64,000 nt of DNA, taken from Eledone cirrhosa (Eukaryota). The DNA is taken from contig OZ024740.1 in assembly GCA_964016885.1 (NCBI GenBank), positions 95,728,001-95,792,000 on the forward strand, given 5' to 3'. The notes under the pieces were generated by a model. The model saw only the letters and a list, made by a program, of their open reading frames with translations, ran no database searches and was not told where the DNA came from. A program made the position numbers and the translations under genes. How positions within the stretch are numbered: position 1 is the stretch's first letter; each line of letters starts with the position of its first letter. Below are positions 42,055-64,000 of the stretch, in pieces.

Positions 42055-42364
42055 ATATAAAGAAAAAAACATGAAATCGAAAATGCAACTGGAGTCTTAT
42101 TTAAAAAAATTTATATATATTTATTTGGTTCCTTTACCGGTTTCGCAGTTCTGCTTTTCAAAAGTAGAGTTGAGATGGAGCGTCTGTGATGTTTCTGACA
42201 TTTTCTGTCAGATGTGAGAAAAACAAAAGACCCTCCATCTCAACTCTACTTTTGAAAAGCAGAAGAACTGCGAAACCGGTAAAGGAACCAAATAAATATG
42301 TATATATATATATTTTTAAATAAGACTTCAGTTGCATTTACGATTTCATCTATTTTTCTTTATA
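42055..42364. mobile_element. 310 bp hairpin element with one hammerhead per arm
   Basis: 42055..42185 is inverted at 42228..42364; HHRs at 42132..42164 (-) and 42249..42284 (+). Confidence 0.85.
42249..42284 (+). ncRNA. Minimal hammerhead ribozyme, U3-A8 variant
   Basis: CTT-TTGAAAA-GCAG(AAGAA)CTGC-GAAA-CCGG-TA-AAG; palindromic stem III. Confidence 0.75.
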
Positions 42365-45158: not shown

Positions 45159-45233
45159 TGCCTCGTCTGACGAACGAATGAAGACGTTTTCTTTCGTATT
45201 CGCCTCATTTGGGAAACCTCTGGTAACGAGGTA
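45159..45233 (+). ncRNA. Type I hammerhead ribozyme with extended stem II
   Basis: TGCCTCGT-CTGACGA-A-CGAATGA...TCATTTG-G-GAAA-CCTCTGG-TA-ACGAGGTA. Confidence 0.85.
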
Positions 45234-53637: not shown

Positions 53638-56124
53638 ATATATATATATGGATATATATATATAGAATTCACATGGATCAAAGTTCTGTTCAAACCATTT
53701 ATTAGCTCACAATTGTTTCGTCCAAACCGAGGTTCCAAACCCTCGGAGCGATTTTTCAATGATTGTTTACATACATGACCTCCTTTCCAACACAGGAGAC
53801 ATACAGATACATATGTATATATTAATGCACGGTGGGGTGACATCCATTATAATATGTTTGCATGGCAATTTAAATTCAAAAATTAAAATCATATTAGAAC
53901 AAAATTAAAATACAACATCGGCAGTTTACGAAGATAATGCAGTCAGTTGTTAGTCAGTTGTAGTAATTCGTGCATGCAATAGTTACACGTATATATATAT
54001 ATGTGTGTGTGTGTATAGATTGACACATACTTACGTTTATCTGCGTGGTTTAATCAATAACCTGTGTGTGTTTGTGTATGTGTGTGTGTTCTGAAATGTC
54101 ACCTCTGCCGATACTAATTCTATTTGTAAAATGCGATTAGCTTGTTGATATTTACGATTTGGATGATGGATACATTTTGACTGGTTCAAATATAAAATAC
54201 AAAGGAAAATACAAATGAAACTGCATCAACACATACCGCAATTTGCTTAATGCTCAGAATGAATTCATGCAGAAATTAAATGTGACTTCTATGTTGCTTT
54301 TATTATCTGTTGATGTCCACTTCATCCTTAAGGGCTCGCTAAAATAAAGCACCAATAATGCACTGGGTTAATTGCTGGCCTTGTGCAAAAAGTAGAAACA
54401 ATTATCTGTTCTTGTTTGATAATATTTATTCAAATGTATATGTATGCAACTATGAACTAGAATGTTCTATATGTTGATCTTCTACTTGAATATTCTTCCC
54501 GTCATCATCATCTCTGAATAATCATACCTTTAAATTACTGTTGAAGGTGACATCCACTCATGCAATGTCCAAATATATGCGATGCTCTATCCTCTCCATC
54601 TAAGTAACTTCGCTTGTATAAGAGATATGTTAAATATAACAAACATGCCTGAAACAAACGTCAAAATCGCAATCAGATAAAATCTTCGTTAGGTACACTG
54701 TGTAATCGCCTGTGGTACGCTCAATATATCTATATCTACGACTGACCACATAGAATATTATATCTATATGTTGTCATTGAAGGAAAAATAATAATTTTGT
54801 TTAGAATGGTGATACTACTAAATCTATATTCAAATCTTACGCCAAATTACATATTTATATCTTTATCTTGACTGTAGCATTTGAGAGGGGAGACTTGACC
54901 CAAAGTATATTATACAGTTATTCATGGTACACAAACTTTCGACAACACAGTTGATTGTTCATTAGACTATATACTCAGCAATGTGCATTCTCAAAAGTCG
55001 CAATACAACTAAACAATTCTGATTTATTGTCTATTATAGACTTGTATAAATTGTGTGATACACACACATATACAGCGTGGAATTCACGAAAATATTCTGG
55101 ACATTTTTAGAACATCTAATTAAATATAATCATATATGATATAGGTACAAACCGTAAAAGTGTAAGATAATTAGATCAGCCTCAGTAGATTTGTTTTAGA
55201 AATAATCGCAGTATGTTTATGATGTCAAAGAGACAATTGCACCATATATTCCCATTAATTTGGTATTGACTACAAATCCCACCGAGTGTGACTTTACATT
55301 TTTCTCATTTCGGAGTGTATTGATGAGCCATAGTATATTTACTTATCTGCAATGTTAAATCATTGGATGCTCACTGATAAACAGTCAATACCATAACTTG
55401 TTTCTCGTTATGACAAAATAGTTATGTATATGAATTTTGGAGTCTAAAATAGCTATTTCAAGTCATTTAAATGATTATCTATGACTTTTAAAATGATTAT
55501 ATTTCCTCTCTTCGTTTAAATATTATTATTATCCATATTCTGTAACAGAATTATATTTCCCTATTTCGTTTAAATATTAGAGGAAATTAAATGCAGAATT
55601 TCTGCAGATATTATTGAATTGATATTTTCTGAATGACAGCGGAAATTTGCTGCATTATGGTCAGATATTCATAAAACAAAAGCCTCAACATTTTCTGAGA
55701 CAAAGAAATAAGTATAAAAACATATTGAGAATATTATTTACTGCCAAGGAAAATTGGCTAACAAACAATAGGTGCAGACGAAGATTGGATAAATGGATCT
55801 AGATCTGTGGTAAACAGATATTTCTAAATAAGGAAGTAAATTTATTTGATTAATTTAGATTATTTGAAGAGAATTAATTCGATTTTTAGACAGTTACCAA
55901 TCCTATATATTTTCATTTGAAATTAAATGTTCAAGGTTTAGTATAATAGCAAATGCCTATAATCAGAAATACACTTTTAGAAATAGGGCAATATATATTT
56001 CTTAAATTGAAATAAACAAATCACTTTGCTGTGATTGGTTTCGAAATAGTAAAAAAATACCTTTAATAAATACCACAGGCAGGAAATATGGACAAATAGC
56101 TGGAATAATAAATATACTGCCATT

Positions 56125-56310
56125 TGGATTGGCAGTATCGGTAGAGGGACGGACGCCATGCTTTCCAGCATAGTTACGTCCCTTTACGATCTGAGTTCAA
56201 ATCCCGCCGAGGTTGACTTTGCCTTTCATCCTTACGGGGTCGATAAAATAAAAGTACTAGTAATGCACTGAGTAATTGCTGGCCTTGTGCCTAAAGTCTA
56301 AACAATCATT
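56125..56310 (+). mobile_element. SINE family 2 copy
   Basis: Nearly identical to 22092..22270. Confidence 0.92.
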
Positions 56311-56523
56311 AATTTTTTTTCTAGGTTCTAGTTATTATACCGAGATCAGTTATTCATTCAAGTTGTGTTTTAATGCCAGTCCATCCTTTGGTTGTGATAT
56401 GCTTTTTTTCAGATGCAGACGATGAACTTGCATACATTTATAGAGATTCCATAACATATTGTCTTTCGAGACTAACTACATTTATAGAACATATAATATA
56501 ACGATGGTTTTTATTACATAATA

Positions 56524-56709
56524 TAATTGTTTCTACTTTTGGCACAAGGTCAGCAATTACCCAGTGAATTACTGGTTCTTTATTTTATCGACCCCGTAAG
56601 GATAAAAGGCAACGTCAACCTCGATGAGGTTTGAACTAAGAATGGAAACGGTCGTAAATCTATGCGTCAAAGCATGGCGTCTGAACTTCTATTGATACTG
56701 CCAATCCAT
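56524..56709 (-). mobile_element. SINE family 2 copy, inverted relative to 56125..56310
   Basis: TTTTATCGACCCCGTAAGGAT..AAGGC and TTTGAACT motifs. Confidence 0.9.
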
Positions 56710-57279
56710 AATATAATGTGAAGTCAACACAATCTAAACAAATTAGCTCTCATATCATAATTGAAATTAAATGTACTAAATGTACAAAAAATGTTCAATA
56801 TGTAAAGCAAAAATAACACTTCGTAACGTGCCAGAGGTATTATGCGGTAAAAATTTCCAAACAGAAAGAGATATAACCTATTCACAAAACCTTGATAGAA
56901 TGTAATAATTATCTTATCTTTACACTGAGTATCATTGAATGATACACAAAGAATATAATTCATGTTAATTTCTGTTCTCATGAATTCTAAGTCCATAAGG
57001 CCATTGCCTCCAACATTAAATCATGCAATTCCCCGAATGTTTGCCATTTTCGTGTTCGTTACGGGAAAATATATTTGTTCTAATATATATATATATATAA
57101 ATATATATATATTTCTGTGTCTATGTGTGTATTTGTCTGTGTGGGTGTGTGTATAATTATGTGTATAATCTCTCCTTCAAATGTATAATAACAAACAAAC
57201 AAGAACTACCTAACATATCCTTGTGCTCTTGTATAAATGGATATATACGCCAACAAAATTAGCATTGTAAAATAGAGGA

Positions 57280-59700
57280 TATTATGTATGAGACATCATT
57301 CAAGACATCAAACCCAGCCCACACCACCGAACTCCACCGATATGCCGGCAGTTCACAATTACTGCAAAAAGTATGCCTTACTCGTAAAAATTGAACAGAA
57401 AAAGAATTCTCCACTTACGTCTGAAAGCAATTACTCTGCCGAATATAGCAATCACAGGAGTACAGCAGAATAAACCACACCAAGATCAAGCAATTAAATG
57501 TTATTAAAAAATATATTTTTCCCGATTTATTCAGCAACGGAAATAAACTGGACAGGCGGAAAAATATTACCATTTCCATACAGGCAAACGTTTCATAGTT
57601 CGGAATAGATTTATCAACTACAATTAATCGTCTTTGAACAAGAAGGGTTGAGTCCGTACGAACATATACATGGGTACACAAATAAATCGATCCAAGTCAG
57701 AAATCTGCTACATTAGTGAAAGCATTTTATGGAACAATTGTATCCAATGGGACATTTTAGTCTGTTACACTTCGATTACCAGAAACCTTCTTCAATATAA
57801 CTGTGTATTACAACTATGAAATTTACGCCATTGATATTGATAAGCTCCACATTTATTACACGCAAAGCGAACGCTGTTTTTCAGGAGGAGAACAGAGTGG
57901 ATATAATTGCCGCTACAACTGGAACGTTTGGCCCTAGCATGGTGTCGTTTGACAAAGTGAACATATGGTGTTTGTTGGCTCATATTTACTCAGCACCCTG
58001 GGAGATGTGTAACAATCCATACACATGGGCCTCTAGAGAGAAGACGACATAGGATTATGCAACAATACGAAAAGTCAGATTAAGAAATGGTATTATAAAA
58101 AAGCTTTAGGCACTTCGATAAAAAATCTCTATAGAGGCAAACTTATTACTTTAAATTCTCTAGGCGTAAGATTATACTTAGAATGTAATTAATGAATGCA
58201 AATAGAAAATTAACATGAATTTCAATGACTTCTATCCAAATATAATGTTAAAAGATGTAATCAACAACTTAGGTAGCGGCATATCATACTTCTAATCTAG
58301 GAAATATTAGAAAATGGGAGATAGATAGAAGCAAAATAGAGTTTATGGGCGGTCATATTTGCATCAGTTACTGATTTGGGTAATTTTAAAACCTTTTGGA
58401 AGATTAGGCACTTTAAGAAGTACCCTGAACTTTGGTTAGATGGAGGCAGCAATATATTATTCGAAAAATACCCTTTTCCCTAATGCCTGGTGTGAATTGA
58501 GATATACTCTAGTTTGAATTGAAATATATTATTGCAGGTTATTTAAGGGCTTTTTTTGTGTTAGCCAAAAGTTAGCAAGTCTAGGTCTAACGATATAATG
58601 AAATGGGATGCGCCGACTGTTTGAGAGCACAGGACCAGCCACGTGGTTACCATTGTATCCAAATTCAAGGAAAACCTTAACAGCATGAGAGGTTGAAAGG
58701 GAGTGTGATGGATTTTCTTCAGCTCGGTGGTCTTCGCTTCAGCTATTAAATTAAGCGAATGAAATCGTATCTGTTTGGCCACATATAAGAGGGATATACC
58801 CTGATTCACAGACATTTCAATCGGACAATGTAGAAGGTGTACAAATATGATATGGAGAAATGTCTACCTGCATGCACTAGTGGTACAAAATTACTCGAAA
58901 AGTCACTTCAAAGATAGTAATAATGCCGAATGCTAAGGCACTCTATTAATTTGAGGATATGCTGGAATTCAACTTTGGATTGACAAATAAAATAGTTTCG
59001 TTGATCAACCTCCAACTTCGAAATTAAGTGTTCAACCTTCACGCCTGCTAACTGGAAAGCCTCATTTCTTCTCACTGATGAATAATGAATCCTTACGAGG
59101 TGGGAAAACTACATTGCTATATCCGGTAACGACCAACATTTCTAATGCAAAAGAATTGTAGCAAGGGCGAGGTATAATTTCTAGCGACTTACAAAGAAAT
59201 GTAGTCTAATACCGTGCTCAAGTTAGCTGACGAACAATCATATTTCCGCTTCCATCCATGGACGTAGGACAGATGGCCAAACATTTACGCAATTGTATGA
59301 CTTCATGAAATCATGAGAATATTGCCAGCTGTTGCATGTTCCATTCTTGGTCATCTGAAAGGCATAGGATTACATTACACCAGAGAGATGTGGGAAGTCC
59401 AGCCGCTGTATGGTATCAAAATACAGACCCTGTTGTCTAGAAATCTCCAGATTCTTTAGTTTTTTTCGGATAAATTGTGCTAAATCCAAACTACTAAATG
59501 TGGTTTTGTACCTCTTCATAATTTCTATAAATATAATTAGCATACCCAATGGAGCTGGACGTTGTATAAAACCCGCAGGAGTACGATCGGTTGACAAGAA
59601 ATATGCAGAAAAGTTTGTGTCATTTGACTGGCCAGAATGTGATTTACATCATTAACTGGAATGGTTTGTGTCTCATACGGTAAGACAGAAATAAAAACCA
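57280..59700 (+). mobile_element. Heavily decayed non-LTR retrotransposon (possible ORF1 knuckle remnants and RT N-terminus)
   Basis: GRRTDGQTF, GKSSR..SKYRPCCL and FVSFD resemble RT motifs PGPDG, YRPISL and FxD in the right order; ERCFS near 57870. Confidence 0.4.
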
Positions 59701-59881
59701 GCATTGCGAAGACTGGCGCGCAAAGCCATCAGAGGTCGCACCTGGATGTAGACGAAGAAGTAGGTGAATGCATAAAATGCTTGATCTCCGTTGGTCTTAC
59801 TTCAGGAAATAGGTGGTTGACAAGCAGGCTTTTTCCATCCGATAGACGTTCCGGATGTCAAGCCACGACACTCCCAGGAAT

Positions 59882-59922
<41 letters not shown>

Positions 59923-59942
59923 ACACATATATATATATATAT

Positions 59943-60721
59943 ATATAGATAATTTAATATATCAACTAACATAAGCGCACAGATGCACGCCCATGCTAGC
60001 AAATACACAGGTTATGTCATAGTACCTAGGTGGTTCAATGCAGGAGAATGCAGAACAATAATATAAAAGACGTAAAATAAGAAAATATTTTCCAAAAAAA
60101 TTTAAAAAAAATATTTTACTTACTTACTTAAATTTTCACTCCAACTAATTAGTTTCTGCAATGGGATAAAGACAGTTACGTAATCCAACTGTCGAGAATT
60201 CATTGCGTCATCAGGGAGTCTATTCTCAGTTAAGTCTCCAGGCAATGCGCGGACACTGGCGGCTCATATAAAAATAATAATAATTCGGTAGATCGAACAG
60301 CTGGCGAGGACTGGATTCTATGCACCGAAATTCTCACTGCTTCAGGTCAAATGGCCGATTCTAAAGAATCAATCACGTGACACAGAGGCTAGTTAGAAGG
60401 AATGAGATGGTAAGATGACTGACGCCTACTAACACCCCAAACAAATTTTTTTAGAAGTGGTTTTGGCAAGTTTGCTCGACAAATCAGTGATTTGGAGATA
60501 AATATAGATAATTTAATATATCAACTAACATAAGCGCACAGATGCACGCCCATGCCAGCAAATACACAGGTTATGTCATAGTACCTAGGTGGTTCAATGC
60601 AGGAGAATGCAGAACAATAATATAAAAGACGTAAAATAAGAAAATATTTTCCAAAAAAATTTAAAAAGAATTTTTTACTTACTTACTTAAATTTTTGTTC
60701 TGCATTCTCCTGCATTGAACC
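59943..60721 (-). mobile_element. ORF-less 559 bp monomer with ~190 bp direct repeats, an HHR and a 27 bp inverted head
   Basis: 59943..60136 repeated at 60502..60695; 60695..60721 is an inverted piece of the repeat. Confidence 0.85.
60138..60219 (-). ncRNA. Type I hammerhead ribozyme with long two-helix stem II
   Basis: ACTCC-CTGATGA-C-GCAATG..GACAGTT..AACTGTC..CATTGC-A-GAAA-CTAATTAG-TT-GGAGT. Confidence 0.88.
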
Positions 60722-60750
60722 GCTGTTTTTATTCCCGTCCAAATGTTCAC

Positions 60751-60830
<80 letters not shown>

Positions 60831-60833
<3 letters not shown>

Positions 60834-61290
60834 TTAATATAGAATAGCTTCTACATGACTAGAACTGTTTCATTTGTGAGAAATCACTAGGAAGCTGGCT
60901 GTCCAAGTAAAGGGTAGTATTTATCTCTAACCTTATCTGGTGGTACGAGAGGGCGGGGATTGGGATGGGTGTAGGTCATATGTTGAAGGATTTAAAATCT
61001 AATTCTTTAAAGCTATAATATTAACAAAGGCAGAAAGAATACTGTAAACAAGTTCAAAATTGGAATACCACTCCTTGTTTATCTCTTGAAGAAACAATGC
61101 GTGTCGGACAGGGGTCTACAGGATGGGTGGGAATCAATGGTTTAAAGAAAAGGCAAATTCTTTAGAGGGTAATTCTTTAAGGCTGAAATAAGGGTGTTCA
61201 AAGGCAGAAAAGATTCCATCATCTGATTCAACTGTTGGGGTTAACGCCCAATAGTGAAGTTTCTCTTAATATATATTCCAGGTGTCCACA
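60831..61290 (-). mobile_element. Probable PLE 3' end with decayed HHR at 60846..60896 (related fragment at 7106..7132)
   Basis: AGCTTC-CTAGTGA-TTTCTCACAAAT-GAAA-CAGTTCTAGTCATG-TA-GAAGCT; core departs from CTGATGA. Confidence 0.6.
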
Positions 61291-61584
61291 AACACATTCA
61301 CACACGCGCGCCCACTTACACACATACACACACTTACACGCGCACACAGATGTAGGCACACACCAAACAAACATACATAATGGTACATACACCCATACAT
61401 ACAAATACATACATACACATATACATATATATGTGTACATACATACGCATACATATACATATATATATACATATATATATATATATACATCATAAATCAT
61501 GTCTTTAGAATCATCAGATAACATATATACTATTTCTTCTTCTAATTAGCATAATTCACCATATAGTTTGTCTCCTGATAGTTT

Positions 61585-61661
61585 GTCTCCTGATGAATCC
61601 TAACTCAGGACATTCCTATTATTTGGATGTCTAAAAATACGGATGAAACCATGGTAGAGAT
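61585..61661 (+). ncRNA. Type I hammerhead ribozyme
   Basis: GTCTC-CTGATGA-ATCC..GACATTCC..GGATGTC..GGAT-GAAA-CCATGG-TA-GAGAT. Confidence 0.9.
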
Positions 61662-62241
61662 AAATTACGGTATGTACGCATTTCTTCTAAGTTTAATTTT
61701 ACACCTAATTGTGTATGTTTGATGATATATTTAGTCAGTTTCTACATGCTGTCGAAATATTGGATAAATACTCGATTGGGGCCACCGCGAAGAGGCTACG
61801 TTCGGTTATTTGTAGGAGATTTCTCCATAAGAGCCTTTCTTCTTATTGGTTGATCTAATTGATTTTTTATATGGTTAATTATGCTAATTAGAAGAAGAAA
61901 TAGTATATATTTTATCTGATGATTCGAAATACATGATTTATGATATATTGCTCTGATTTTTTAATTTACTAATTCTTCATAGAGCTTAAAAGTGACCAGT
62001 TGCAACATATATATATCTATAACTTTGTGTATATGTTAACCTTTATATTTAATAATCTCCCGATAGGTTGAGATTAAATTTGGCGATATGTGGCTGCGCT
62101 TTCTAGCAGCAGGCCTACCCGCCGTAAGCAACCAATCACATTATTTCTGGCTTGACCAAAGCCACATAGCGATTCTTAGCCATTTTTTAATCTATTTTTG
62201 GCGGGATCGGATTGAAAAACTAGATTTCTGATTTTGAGTTT

Positions 62242-62318
62242 GTCTCCTGATGAATCCAAACTCAGGACATTCCTATTATTTGGATGTCTAAAAATAGGGA
62301 TGAAACCATGGTAGAGAT
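62242..62318 (+). ncRNA. Type I hammerhead ribozyme (second tandem copy)
   Basis: Same core and stems as 61585..61661; the differences fall in unpaired parts of stem II. Confidence 0.9.
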
Positions 62319-62706
62319 ATAATTACGGAATGTACGCATTTCTTCTAAGTTTAATTGTACACCTAATTGTGTATGTTTGATGATATATTTAGTCAGTTTC
62401 TACATGCTGCGAAATGTTGGATAAATACTCGATTGGGGCGACCGAGAAGAGGCTACGTTCGGTTATTTGTCGGAGATTTCTCCATAAGAGCCTTCTTCTT
62501 ATAGGTTGATCTAATTGATTTTTATATGGTTAATTATGCTAATTAGAAGAATAAATAGTATGTATTTTATCTGATGATTCTAAAGACATGATTTATGATA
62601 TATTGCTCTGATTTTTTAATTTATTAATTCTTCATAGAGTTTAAAAGTGACCAGTTATACATATCTATAACTTATACATCTATAACTTTATGTATATGTT
62701 AACCTT

Positions 62707-62761
<55 letters not shown>

Positions 62762-62766
62762 GTCCA

Positions 62767-62818
<52 letters not shown>

Positions 62819-62951
62819 TATACACATACACAGATATATACACATACATACACATTTACACTCATACATATACATATACATACATATACACATATATTCA
62901 TATATGTACATACATATACACATACATATACACATATATATACACACACAT

Positions 62952-63022
<71 letters not shown>

Positions 63023-63092
63023 CATATACACGCACACACACACATATGTGTATACATATATATATACACATATAACTGAAGTCGTAGACTAA

Positions 63093-64000
63093 AATTCTAT
63101 TTGGATTAAAAATCTAATAGTACCCCATTCGACGTGAGTATGAGCGCCAGCGATTCCGCGGAGGTTACGGATTTTATTGGCCTTTTCCTTATTTTCTCTA
63201 TGAAGGAAAAATTCCCCAACGTGGGCGGTAGTTTGTACCGTGATTATGGTCTTTTGCACATGACCACAGCGGCCCACTTACTTGCGACAGGTTCAGAACA
63301 GAACTCACAGCCTTTAAAGATTTCAGCCGCTCCATACAGGTTGAGACCAACCTCTATGTTGTTAATTACCTCGACGTTATCCTCAATTTATCGAATGGGT
63401 TGCATTAACCCTATAGAATGGCGAATGATACGCTTAATTACACAAGTAACCATTCTAGCCATCCTGCCAGCATATCCAAAAACTTGGTAAGAAACGTTTA
63501 TTTGAGGCTTTCCCCTCTATCAACAAACGAGCATATTTTCAACGACCATTCCACATATGACAATGAAGCTCATGCTCGCAGTGGATTTGTCGATAAAGTA
63601 GCATATAGAGATTTCGAGAATAGACCGAGGAAAAATAGATCCAGATGCATTATGTGGTATAACCCATAATATAATATGAAGGTGACCATACCTTGAGGTA
63701 AGATCTTTCTCTCCCTTATTATGAAGCATTTCCCTCCAGAACATAAATATAGTAATTTTTTTAATAGAAATACCATTAAAATGTCTTACTCTACGACTCC
63801 TAACCTTGCACATAACATCACAGCTTCAAATTTAGCTAAATTACCTAGCGGTACGAACACGTGCAGCCCTGTAGCTAGTACTAACTGTAATCGTAGCAGT
63901 CGGGTTGATTGCCCCCTATCCGGGAAATGCCTCTAGTAACATTGTCTACAAATGCAAGATTGAAACACCCACGTCCCGTAGGGCCTACATAGGGTTAACC
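63093..64000 (+). mobile_element. Naiad-like PLE fragment (same family as 48765..52580), running off the window
   Basis: DSAEVTDFIGLF, GSLYRDYGL, SSHP, IMWYNP, FNRNTIKMSYS and CPLSGKCL motifs. Confidence 0.92.

Follow-up and report, generated by a model that had tools for sequence, protein, structure and literature searches.

The locus analyzed here raises the question of how a repeat that encodes no protein is copied and inserted, and by which enzyme. It lies at positions 59943..60721 of a 64,000-nt stretch of the Eledone cirrhosa genome (assembly GCA_964016885.1, contig OZ024740.1, positions 95,728,001-95,792,000 of the forward strand; the window, hereafter), where a first-pass annotation had described an ORF-less 559-bp unit with ~190 bp of redundancy, a minus-strand hammerhead and a short inverted piece at the 5' end, and had proposed reverse transcription around a circular or multimeric RNA. 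The family of 559-bp-unit repeats to which this copy belongs is denoted family 1, and its coordinates (q) run along the hammerhead (minus) strand, from q1 = 60506 to q559 = 59948.

The copy sits between two TA-rich microsatellites and consists of one full unit (59948..60506, minus strand, q1 to q559) and a partial upstream unit (60507..60695, minus strand, q371-559) that is 5'-truncated 6 nt past the predicted ribozyme cut site. The resulting direct repeat, 59943-60136 versus 60502-60695, covers 194 bp at a spacing of 559 bp and is 98.5% identical, with three substitutions (59997/60556, 60109/60668 and 60113/60672), in agreement with the unit length, redundancy and near-identity that had been annotated; the 194 bp reflect the 5' truncation point of this particular copy and are no fixed length. 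No ORF was found on either strand of the circularised unit, where stop-free stretches reach at most 53 codons and ATG frames at most 27. The unit has a GC content of 36.9% and a predicted fold with z = -3.6 against 100 shuffles, none of which folded as well.

At the 3' (long-site) end, the sequence, together with the family's 3' junctions in TA runs, identifies the (TA)(CA)n(TA)n microsatellite at 59881..59947 as the target, and its last 5 bases overlap the element's own UAUAU. An internal site at q446 (60061..60065, minus strand, ...UUUUAUAU), 82 nt past the predicted cut, is the short 3'-end site of the family; it is read through in this copy, both there and at 60620. The 113 nt between the short and long sites (59948..60060, minus strand), the "tail", comprise a GUUC...UUGAAC hairpin, then CAC, then a long hairpin that ends at the long site, q559; the first hairpin motif is common to families 1, 1b and 3. 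On the opposite side, a 27-bp piece on the plus strand (60695..60721), corresponding to q449-475, the hairpin after the short site, is the exact reverse complement of 60591-60617. It had been likened to the inverted 5' copies of Penelope-like elements (PLEs), and the exact inversion stands; however, the piece is atypical for family 1, in which the usual inversion is a long second arm, and it ends at q475, at neither fixed 3' site. It probably arose at the 5' junction as a fold-back or a templated insertion. Beyond it lie ~31 bp of single-copy sequence (60722..60752), with a 24-nt core found once in the genome, and the right-hand (TA)n run (60753..60830). Directly left of the element, positions 58400-59880 hold a stop-ridden, coding-looking stretch; Pfam searches with eight frames of the window, four of them covering this stretch, returned no relevant family.

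A pattern scan of the window, which gave 4 matches in all, places a type I hammerhead motif at 60138..60219 on the minus strand. Reading from 60219, stem I (ACUCC/GGAGU, 5 bp) is followed by CUGAUGA, a stem II region of 51 nt that forms two helices (6 bp, and 7-8 bp), GAAA, CUAAUUAG, and the triplet GUU at 60145-60143, which is among the cleavable NUH triplets (PMC3138052) and puts the predicted cut at 60143/60142. The strand, the stem I length, the two-helix stem II, the triplet and the cut position are thus the same as in the first-pass annotation. Its 8-nt stem III palindrome is palindromic as claimed, but becomes 10 nt once A15.1/U16.1 are counted (self-duplex, -9.0 kcal/mol), and the core is not "perfect": positions 10.1-11.1, the core-closing pair of stem II, are a C·A mismatch, the other core boxes being intact. 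Because this mismatch is unchanged in nearly all family 1 monomer rows and is kept as C/U·A in two sister families that are ~73% alike, it is a trait of the family and not decay of one copy; it may slow cleavage. An Rfam scan of 55000-64000 detected no hammerhead family at E<=1, and otherwise only microsatellite-driven miRNA/snoRNA matches below their cut-offs.

Compensatory changes between the sister families support the proximal part of stem II, where one pair takes four Watson-Crick types across 8 aligned sequences and 99.1% of cells are paired, compared to 94.5% in shuffles (0/500), a contrast that is inflated by the relatedness of the sequences; only 4 of the 6 pairs were counted because MAFFT misplaced a gap in stem II. 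The distal part carries a UUCG loop in families 1b and 1c and another loop in family 1. The active fold of the hammerhead region (-18.1 kcal/mol) is not the minimum-energy fold (-22.8 kcal/mol), and stem I is not formed in the predicted fold of the circular unit. A possible pseudoknot (60194..60227, minus strand), suggestive only, would pair GAGAAU upstream of stem I (60227-60222) with AUUCUC in the stem II internal loop (60199-60194). In shuffles, with windows picked after the sequences had been seen, its P value is 0.029 in family 1 and 0.026 in family 2, and none is significant in five other hammerheads (0.17, 0.76, 0.31, 0.79 and 1.0); all 30 pseudoknot cells of the aligned set are paired, without any double change. 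Known hammerheads include examples of pseudoknots joining stems I and II as well as of a mismatch at 10.1-11.1 (PMC3088659), and the present motif may be a long-stem-II variant closed by such a pseudoknot.

Family 1 is widely dispersed in the genome. A 29-nt ribozyme word yields 4,189 exact matches genome-wide, against 0 for the control, so that the locus is not the unique local duplication that had been named as a competing possibility. A DNA search of the same 3.0-Gb genome produced 1,486 candidates, 39 of which were scored and are mostly 94-98% identical. To these, 58 loci were added, chosen regardless of quality from the first 100 listed word matches, on contig 1 (one additional cluster among these 100 was already in the set of 39); the 58 form an unbiased set within the 97 loci analyzed. 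Before counting, matches of <80% identity longer than 150 bp were left out, which renders locus L101 one-armed, as were neighbouring sister-family matches in L037, L109, L145 and L146; homopolymer and hairpin stretches (q41-72, 223-242 and 369-432) and 4 nt at match ends were left out too.

Insertion lengths range from 204 to 3,446 bp (the unbiased set has a median of 732), and each insertion, placed in (TA)n, is an array of anything from less than one unit to more than five, with the units adjoining each other directly, head-to-tail. Their 3' ends fall at two fixed sites, q446 (short) and q559 (long), 82 and 195 nt past the predicted cut, both of which are UAUAU words that match the TA target; the respective junction words occur 1,249 and 1,243 times genome-wide. 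The 5' ends are variable and spread over the unit. Given these variable 5' ends and the head-to-tail units, an LTR pair is excluded, and the dispersed copies show neither an LTR pair nor a visible target-site duplication (TSD). The expectation that copies would be circular permutations of the same 559 bp did not survive: only the 5' ends vary, and the two fixed 3' ends rule out free permutation. Cleavage by the ribozyme as the rule that sets the 5' end was also considered and rejected. The copy at 59943..60721 stops 6 nt past the cut, and 11 of 159 5' ends fall in q361-380 where 5.7 are expected (P 0.03), but this excess is absent in the unbiased set (4/94 just past the cut, P 0.44).

The two 3' sites differ in their junctions with the target. 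Extra (TC)n or TATC units lie between the element and the TA run at 19 of 65 long ends (observed at L007, L023, L037, L097, L102, L117, L118, L123 and others) and at none of 68 short ends. These units reflect either stuttering at initiation, which may be telomerase-like, or compound-microsatellite targets. At L014, a 20-nt false start lies ahead of the true start.

A strict regularity of the family concerns the pairing of its ends. Among the 97 loci, 62 are two-armed, with the arms head to head, and in 54 of these both outer ends are canonical; all 54 combine one short and one long end, none is concordant, and the tail is accordingly present at exactly one end in each. The other 8, including the copy at 59943..60721, have one non-canonical end. 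Since one-armed loci split into 17 long, 17 short and 1 other, the chance of 54 discordant pairs out of 54 is ~0.5^54. Fifteen of the 54 have arms that are not nested in either direction (for example, 161+52, 125+82 and 186+120 bp); both arms must therefore have been primed on RNA, because fold-back of one cDNA cannot make them. In the remaining 39, one arm is contained in the other, and in 6 of the 54 both 5' ends lie at the same coordinate, which may identify these 6 as fold-backs. The arms overlap by a few bases at their junction in 32 of 54 loci, and abut or are separated by a short gap in the rest. A tail at one end has been described for PLEs as occurring "often" (PMC8557442) or "optionally"; within the open-access literature, we found neither a strict count of such ends nor a model of twin priming on one RNA.

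The same end rule was observed in sister retrozymes, at 9/10 loci of family 1b, 4/4 of family 2 and 14/15 of family 3, with one concordant locus each in families 1b and 3; these counts drop L159 (overlapping L158) and L058 and L065 (overlapping neighbours), and family 1b locus L170 is unclassified. Two families that encode ORFs with Hydra motifs follow it as well, the first with 2 pairs and the second with 5.

Families 1b and 1c, ~73% like family 1, occur at L037 23-752 and L152-L171, and at L109 and L170; family 1b has a 523-bp unit, ends 109 nt apart and one array of ~16 units. Family 2 is unrelated and present in the window itself at 61485-62714, with a 657-bp unit, hammerheads at 61584-61662 and 62241-62319 (plus strand), a CCAUGG stem III palindrome, a 48-nt stem II region and 4,055 first-look candidates in the genome; its copy here is two-armed, with an 81-bp inverted arm ending at the short site and the direct arm at the long site, the sites being 103 nt apart. 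Family 3 (L002 2750-3560 and L215-L230) is young, with a 483-bp unit, copies 99-100% identical and arrays of ~9 units; at L002, it is inserted in a TA run adjoining a family 1 copy. The window further contains a type I hammerhead motif with a long stem II at 45161-45231 (plus strand), ~25 nt before a (TA)n run, and, at ~42130-42290, a head-to-head pair of short hammerhead-like motifs with a U3/A8 core variant and a CCGG palindrome.

The composition of the arrays bears on the nature of the template. Units diverge by 0.54% within an arm, by 0.77% from one arm to the other and by 4.7% from locus to locus; in 420 of 448 cases, a variant diagnostic of a subfamily is fixed throughout its array. Of the 28 non-fixed cases, 11 come from one chimeric array; the L103 array joins two units from different subfamilies, with 11 diagnostic sites mixed, and is the product of a template switch or recombination. 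Fourteen variants are private to one of the 97 loci, in the sense of private within a small sample; all are fixed in every unit that covers them, 10 of them across both arms. No partial variants are shared between arrays in the family 1 loci compared, and a unit is about as similar to its nearest copy at another locus as to the other units of its array. Five variants of family 3 are found in numerous combinations; each combination is uniform through up to nine units and, as a rule, in both arms (one array is an exception, with a single site seen in 1 of 3). Private fixed variants are also present in 4 of 16 arrays of this family. Homogeneous multi-unit arrays thus imply a circular or multimeric RNA template, as the first-pass annotation had it, and fixation through units and across arms indicates that both arms derive from one haplotype in almost every insertion. 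Because private variants and recombined haplotypes are fixed array-wide, a one-unit bottleneck followed by re-expansion is called for, which a circle explains most simply, short of proof; homogeneous arrays as such would also be expected from one homogeneous source array per cell.

Family 1 is physically separate from Penelope ORFs. In tblastn searches of the 97 flanks with four PLE proteins, family 1 runs into a Penelope ORF at 0/97 loci; an ORF fragment is found in the fetched flank of 33, and a TA run parts it from the element in all 33, so that the copies do not always abut an RT ORF, the other possibility that had been raised against the first-pass reading. A BLAST search for sequence shared with an autonomous Hydra-type family, against 26 loci, gave one 19-nt match only (E 0.06), and a pattern for the long end with any other continuation gave 14 matches whose words are one base off family 1; the search for an autonomous partner covered a few of the PLE subfamilies of this genome. 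Contigs from five runs of unrecorded kind contained family 1 variants and TA junctions only, with no ORF continuation.

Nearly intact Hydra ORFs are encoded in the same genome. The first ORF-coding family shows the motifs RWR/RWI and DKT as well as CxCX5C, CxxC and CxH, and was assigned to the Hydra clade from the motifs listed in PMC8557442, Pfam having no family for the protein; the second is 42% identical to it over 544 aa and is ordered as a long-stem-II hammerhead, the short end, the long end and the ATG. Since a Neptune-type family in this genome also has TA-joined ends, the clade of the driver is deduced from the layout. At L124, L127 and L129 are Penelope elements of the Neptune type, with a CxxxxCxxC linker; they carry a minimal hammerhead, and their two 3' ends, ~50 nt apart, are joined to TA. 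A 5'-truncated, broken Hydra-clade RT-EN remnant lies in the window at 63080-64000 and in L031 at 1001-1520; its family is very abundant (27,652 first-look candidates) and has open frames of up to 723 aa elsewhere, and a minimal hammerhead-like word with U3/A8 occurs near L031 1493-1523.

Taken together, these findings are best explained if the protein-free 559-bp hammerhead repeat is a non-LTR retrozyme moved in trans by the RT-endonuclease of a Penelope-like element, probably one of the Hydra clade, a reading to which we assign a probability of about 0.7. The non-coding tandem unit, the type I hammerhead in each unit and the dispersed copies without LTRs are those of non-LTR retrozymes; L012, L016 and L041, among others, qualify as "active" in the sense used for this class, and the copy at 59943..60721 itself holds one hammerhead only. 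No ORF combining RT and GIY-YIG between pseudo-LTRs (pLTRs), as in an autonomous PLE, is present, and by the layout tested (partial tandems, an inverted 5'-truncated arm and a tail at one end) family 1 is likely a non-autonomous PLE. The combination of (TA)n targeting with a hammerhead, in the same order of parts as in the local Hydra elements, points to a driver of that clade. A plant-type LTR retrozyme, with type III hammerheads in LTRs and a 4-bp TSD, was rejected, the topology here being type I with no LTR pair or TSD.

A pathway consistent with these features can be outlined. The array would be transcribed from the hammerhead strand, the hammerheads in the multimer would cut, probably as dimers via the palindromic stem III, and the unit would be ligated to a circle. 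A Penelope protein would then bind the hairpins 82-195 nt past the cut and nick the (TA)n tract on both strands, each DNA end pairing with a UAUAU of the same RNA, one at the short site and one at the long site, and cDNA synthesis would then proceed backwards across the cut site and around the circle, over a distance that varies. Joining of the two cDNA ends by microhomology would give head-to-head arms, and joining of one cDNA end to the target would give one-armed copies. The copy at 59943..60721 would have started at the long site, run 1.34 units to 6 nt past the cut, and been closed by a short inverted copy of its own hairpin. We consider it an even chance that Penelope integration is such an asymmetric twin priming, in which one protein dimer uses one ribozyme-made RNA circle, and the two nicked (TA)n strands each start a cDNA at a fixed site of their own, both cDNAs rolling round the circle.

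The most serious alternative retains the element class and the priming sites, and replaces the circle with an uncleaved linear multimeric transcript of a source array, with the hammerhead slow or incidental. In its favor, hammerhead mutants leave insertion by the Poseidon element PAc unchanged in vitro, unprocessed RNA being the main substrate (PMC11167929), and no cleavage was reported in 8 of 9 Xenopus retrozyme dimers (10.64898/2026.07.22.740005); the C·A mismatch and the non-active minimum-energy fold fit a slow ribozyme, and partly cleaved linear RNA would give the weak excess of 5' ends past the cut. That excess is, however, missing from the unbiased set, arrays share no in-phase partial variants, and the private variants found in all units, with recombined haplotypes over up to 9 units, need the one-unit bottleneck and re-expansion. 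We view a linear template as unlikely. Under another alternative, priming would occur once, and the inverted arm would arise by self-priming or fold-back, a route put forward for rotifer Penelope with an antisense template, and would end where it meets the other TA-like site; self-priming at palindromic junctions has been suggested (PMC3846280), and the nested arms, the 6 loci with coincident 5' ends and the 27-bp piece of the present copy, which looks like a fold-back, are in its favor. The 15 non-nested loci refute single priming as the general route, leaving it as a possible source of a subset, and nothing in it accounts for the two ends never sharing a site; as a full account, it is very improbable.

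The least plausible alternative, to which we give hardly any weight, takes the copies for solo pLTR fragments of an autonomous Penelope or for a DNA-level satellite or local duplication. The Penelope ORF fragments flanking a third of the loci could be taken to favor it, and unequal crossing-over can enlarge tandem arrays, but the TA run always intervenes between ORF and element, the units are directly consecutive, q365-559 continues into an RT-EN ORF at 0/97 loci, and scattered loci whose 3' ends are fixed and whose 5' ends are ragged bear the footprint of retrotransposition. A retrozyme mobilised in trans by a Penelope-like enzyme remains the preferred reading.

Because the element class is already known, the locus itself is unsurprising. 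Family 1 as a whole amounts to a natural experiment: its thousands of young, short insertions obey a strict end rule, include arms that are not nested and carry one haplotype each, which bears on how PLEs come to produce tandem and inverted copies tailed at a single end and on whether retrozymes ride on PLEs through circles. Should twin priming be correct, the optional Penelope tail, the pLTR and the head-to-head inversion would be one footprint; a 559-nt RNA with two mapped start sites, along with the local Hydra ORFs, makes the mechanism testable in vitro.

Compared to known systems, family 1 is closest to metazoan non-LTR retrozymes, for which RNA circles have been reported in animals (PMC7229834) and an origin from Penelope pLTRs has been put forward (10.64898/2026.07.22.740005). 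As these two sources describe them, they share with family 1 non-coding tandems of <50% GC with one type I hammerhead per unit and no LTR, PBS or PPT, dispersed as monomers to multimers and coexisting with PLEs. The unit length falls within the 51-972 bp range of Li, Clavereau and Pollet 2026 (10.64898/2026.07.22.740005) and exceeds the 170-400 nt of the invertebrate circles of Cervera and de la Pena 2020 (PMC7229834). Unlike the retrozymes as described there, family 1 has a two-helix, 51-nt stem II with C·A at its base and no visible TSD, and its fixed 3' ends and head-to-head arms have no counterpart in the retrozyme descriptions of these two sources. The hammerhead also resembles the minimal hammerheads of PLEs (Cervera and de la Pena 2014, PMC4209133) in the 4-5 bp helix I, the enlarged helix II, the palindromic helix III and the extra nucleotide after position 9 followed by G-C, but its helix II is much longer (two helices), a second unpaired A precedes G12, and helix III is 3 bp. 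Circular templates were proposed in the same work for copies of more than one unit.

Among PLEs, partial tandems, inverted 5' copies and (TA)n targeting by Hydra elements have been documented (PMC8557442; see also PMC3846280), and Hydra-clade elements (Craig et al. 2021, PMC8557442) match family 1 in (TA)n targets, hammerhead, partial tandems, an inverted 5'-truncated copy and a one-end tail, whereas family 1 has no ORF and no sequence match to the local Hydra families examined. The tail is 113 nt in family 1, ~85-90 nt in the local Hydra families and 30-40 bp as described for Hydra (PMC8557442). Chlamys elements such as MRC1 are likewise non-autonomous, ORF-less and pLTR-forming, with multicopy head-to-tail insertions in microsatellites; they differ in being algal, mostly without a hammerhead, and similar at the 3' end to a known autonomous family, a similarity not found for family 1 (PMC8557442). 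A mechanistic parallel is PAc of Anolis (Frangieh et al. 2024, PMC11167929), in which two internal RT start sites downstream of the hammerhead define the tail, targets are AT-rich, both strands are cut and extended, and a dimer is predicted. In PAc, the start sites have no homology to the cleaved DNA and do not differ between strands (PMC11167929), whereas in family 1 both sites are UAUAU words that match the TA repeats of the target, and a given insertion has its two ends at different sites.
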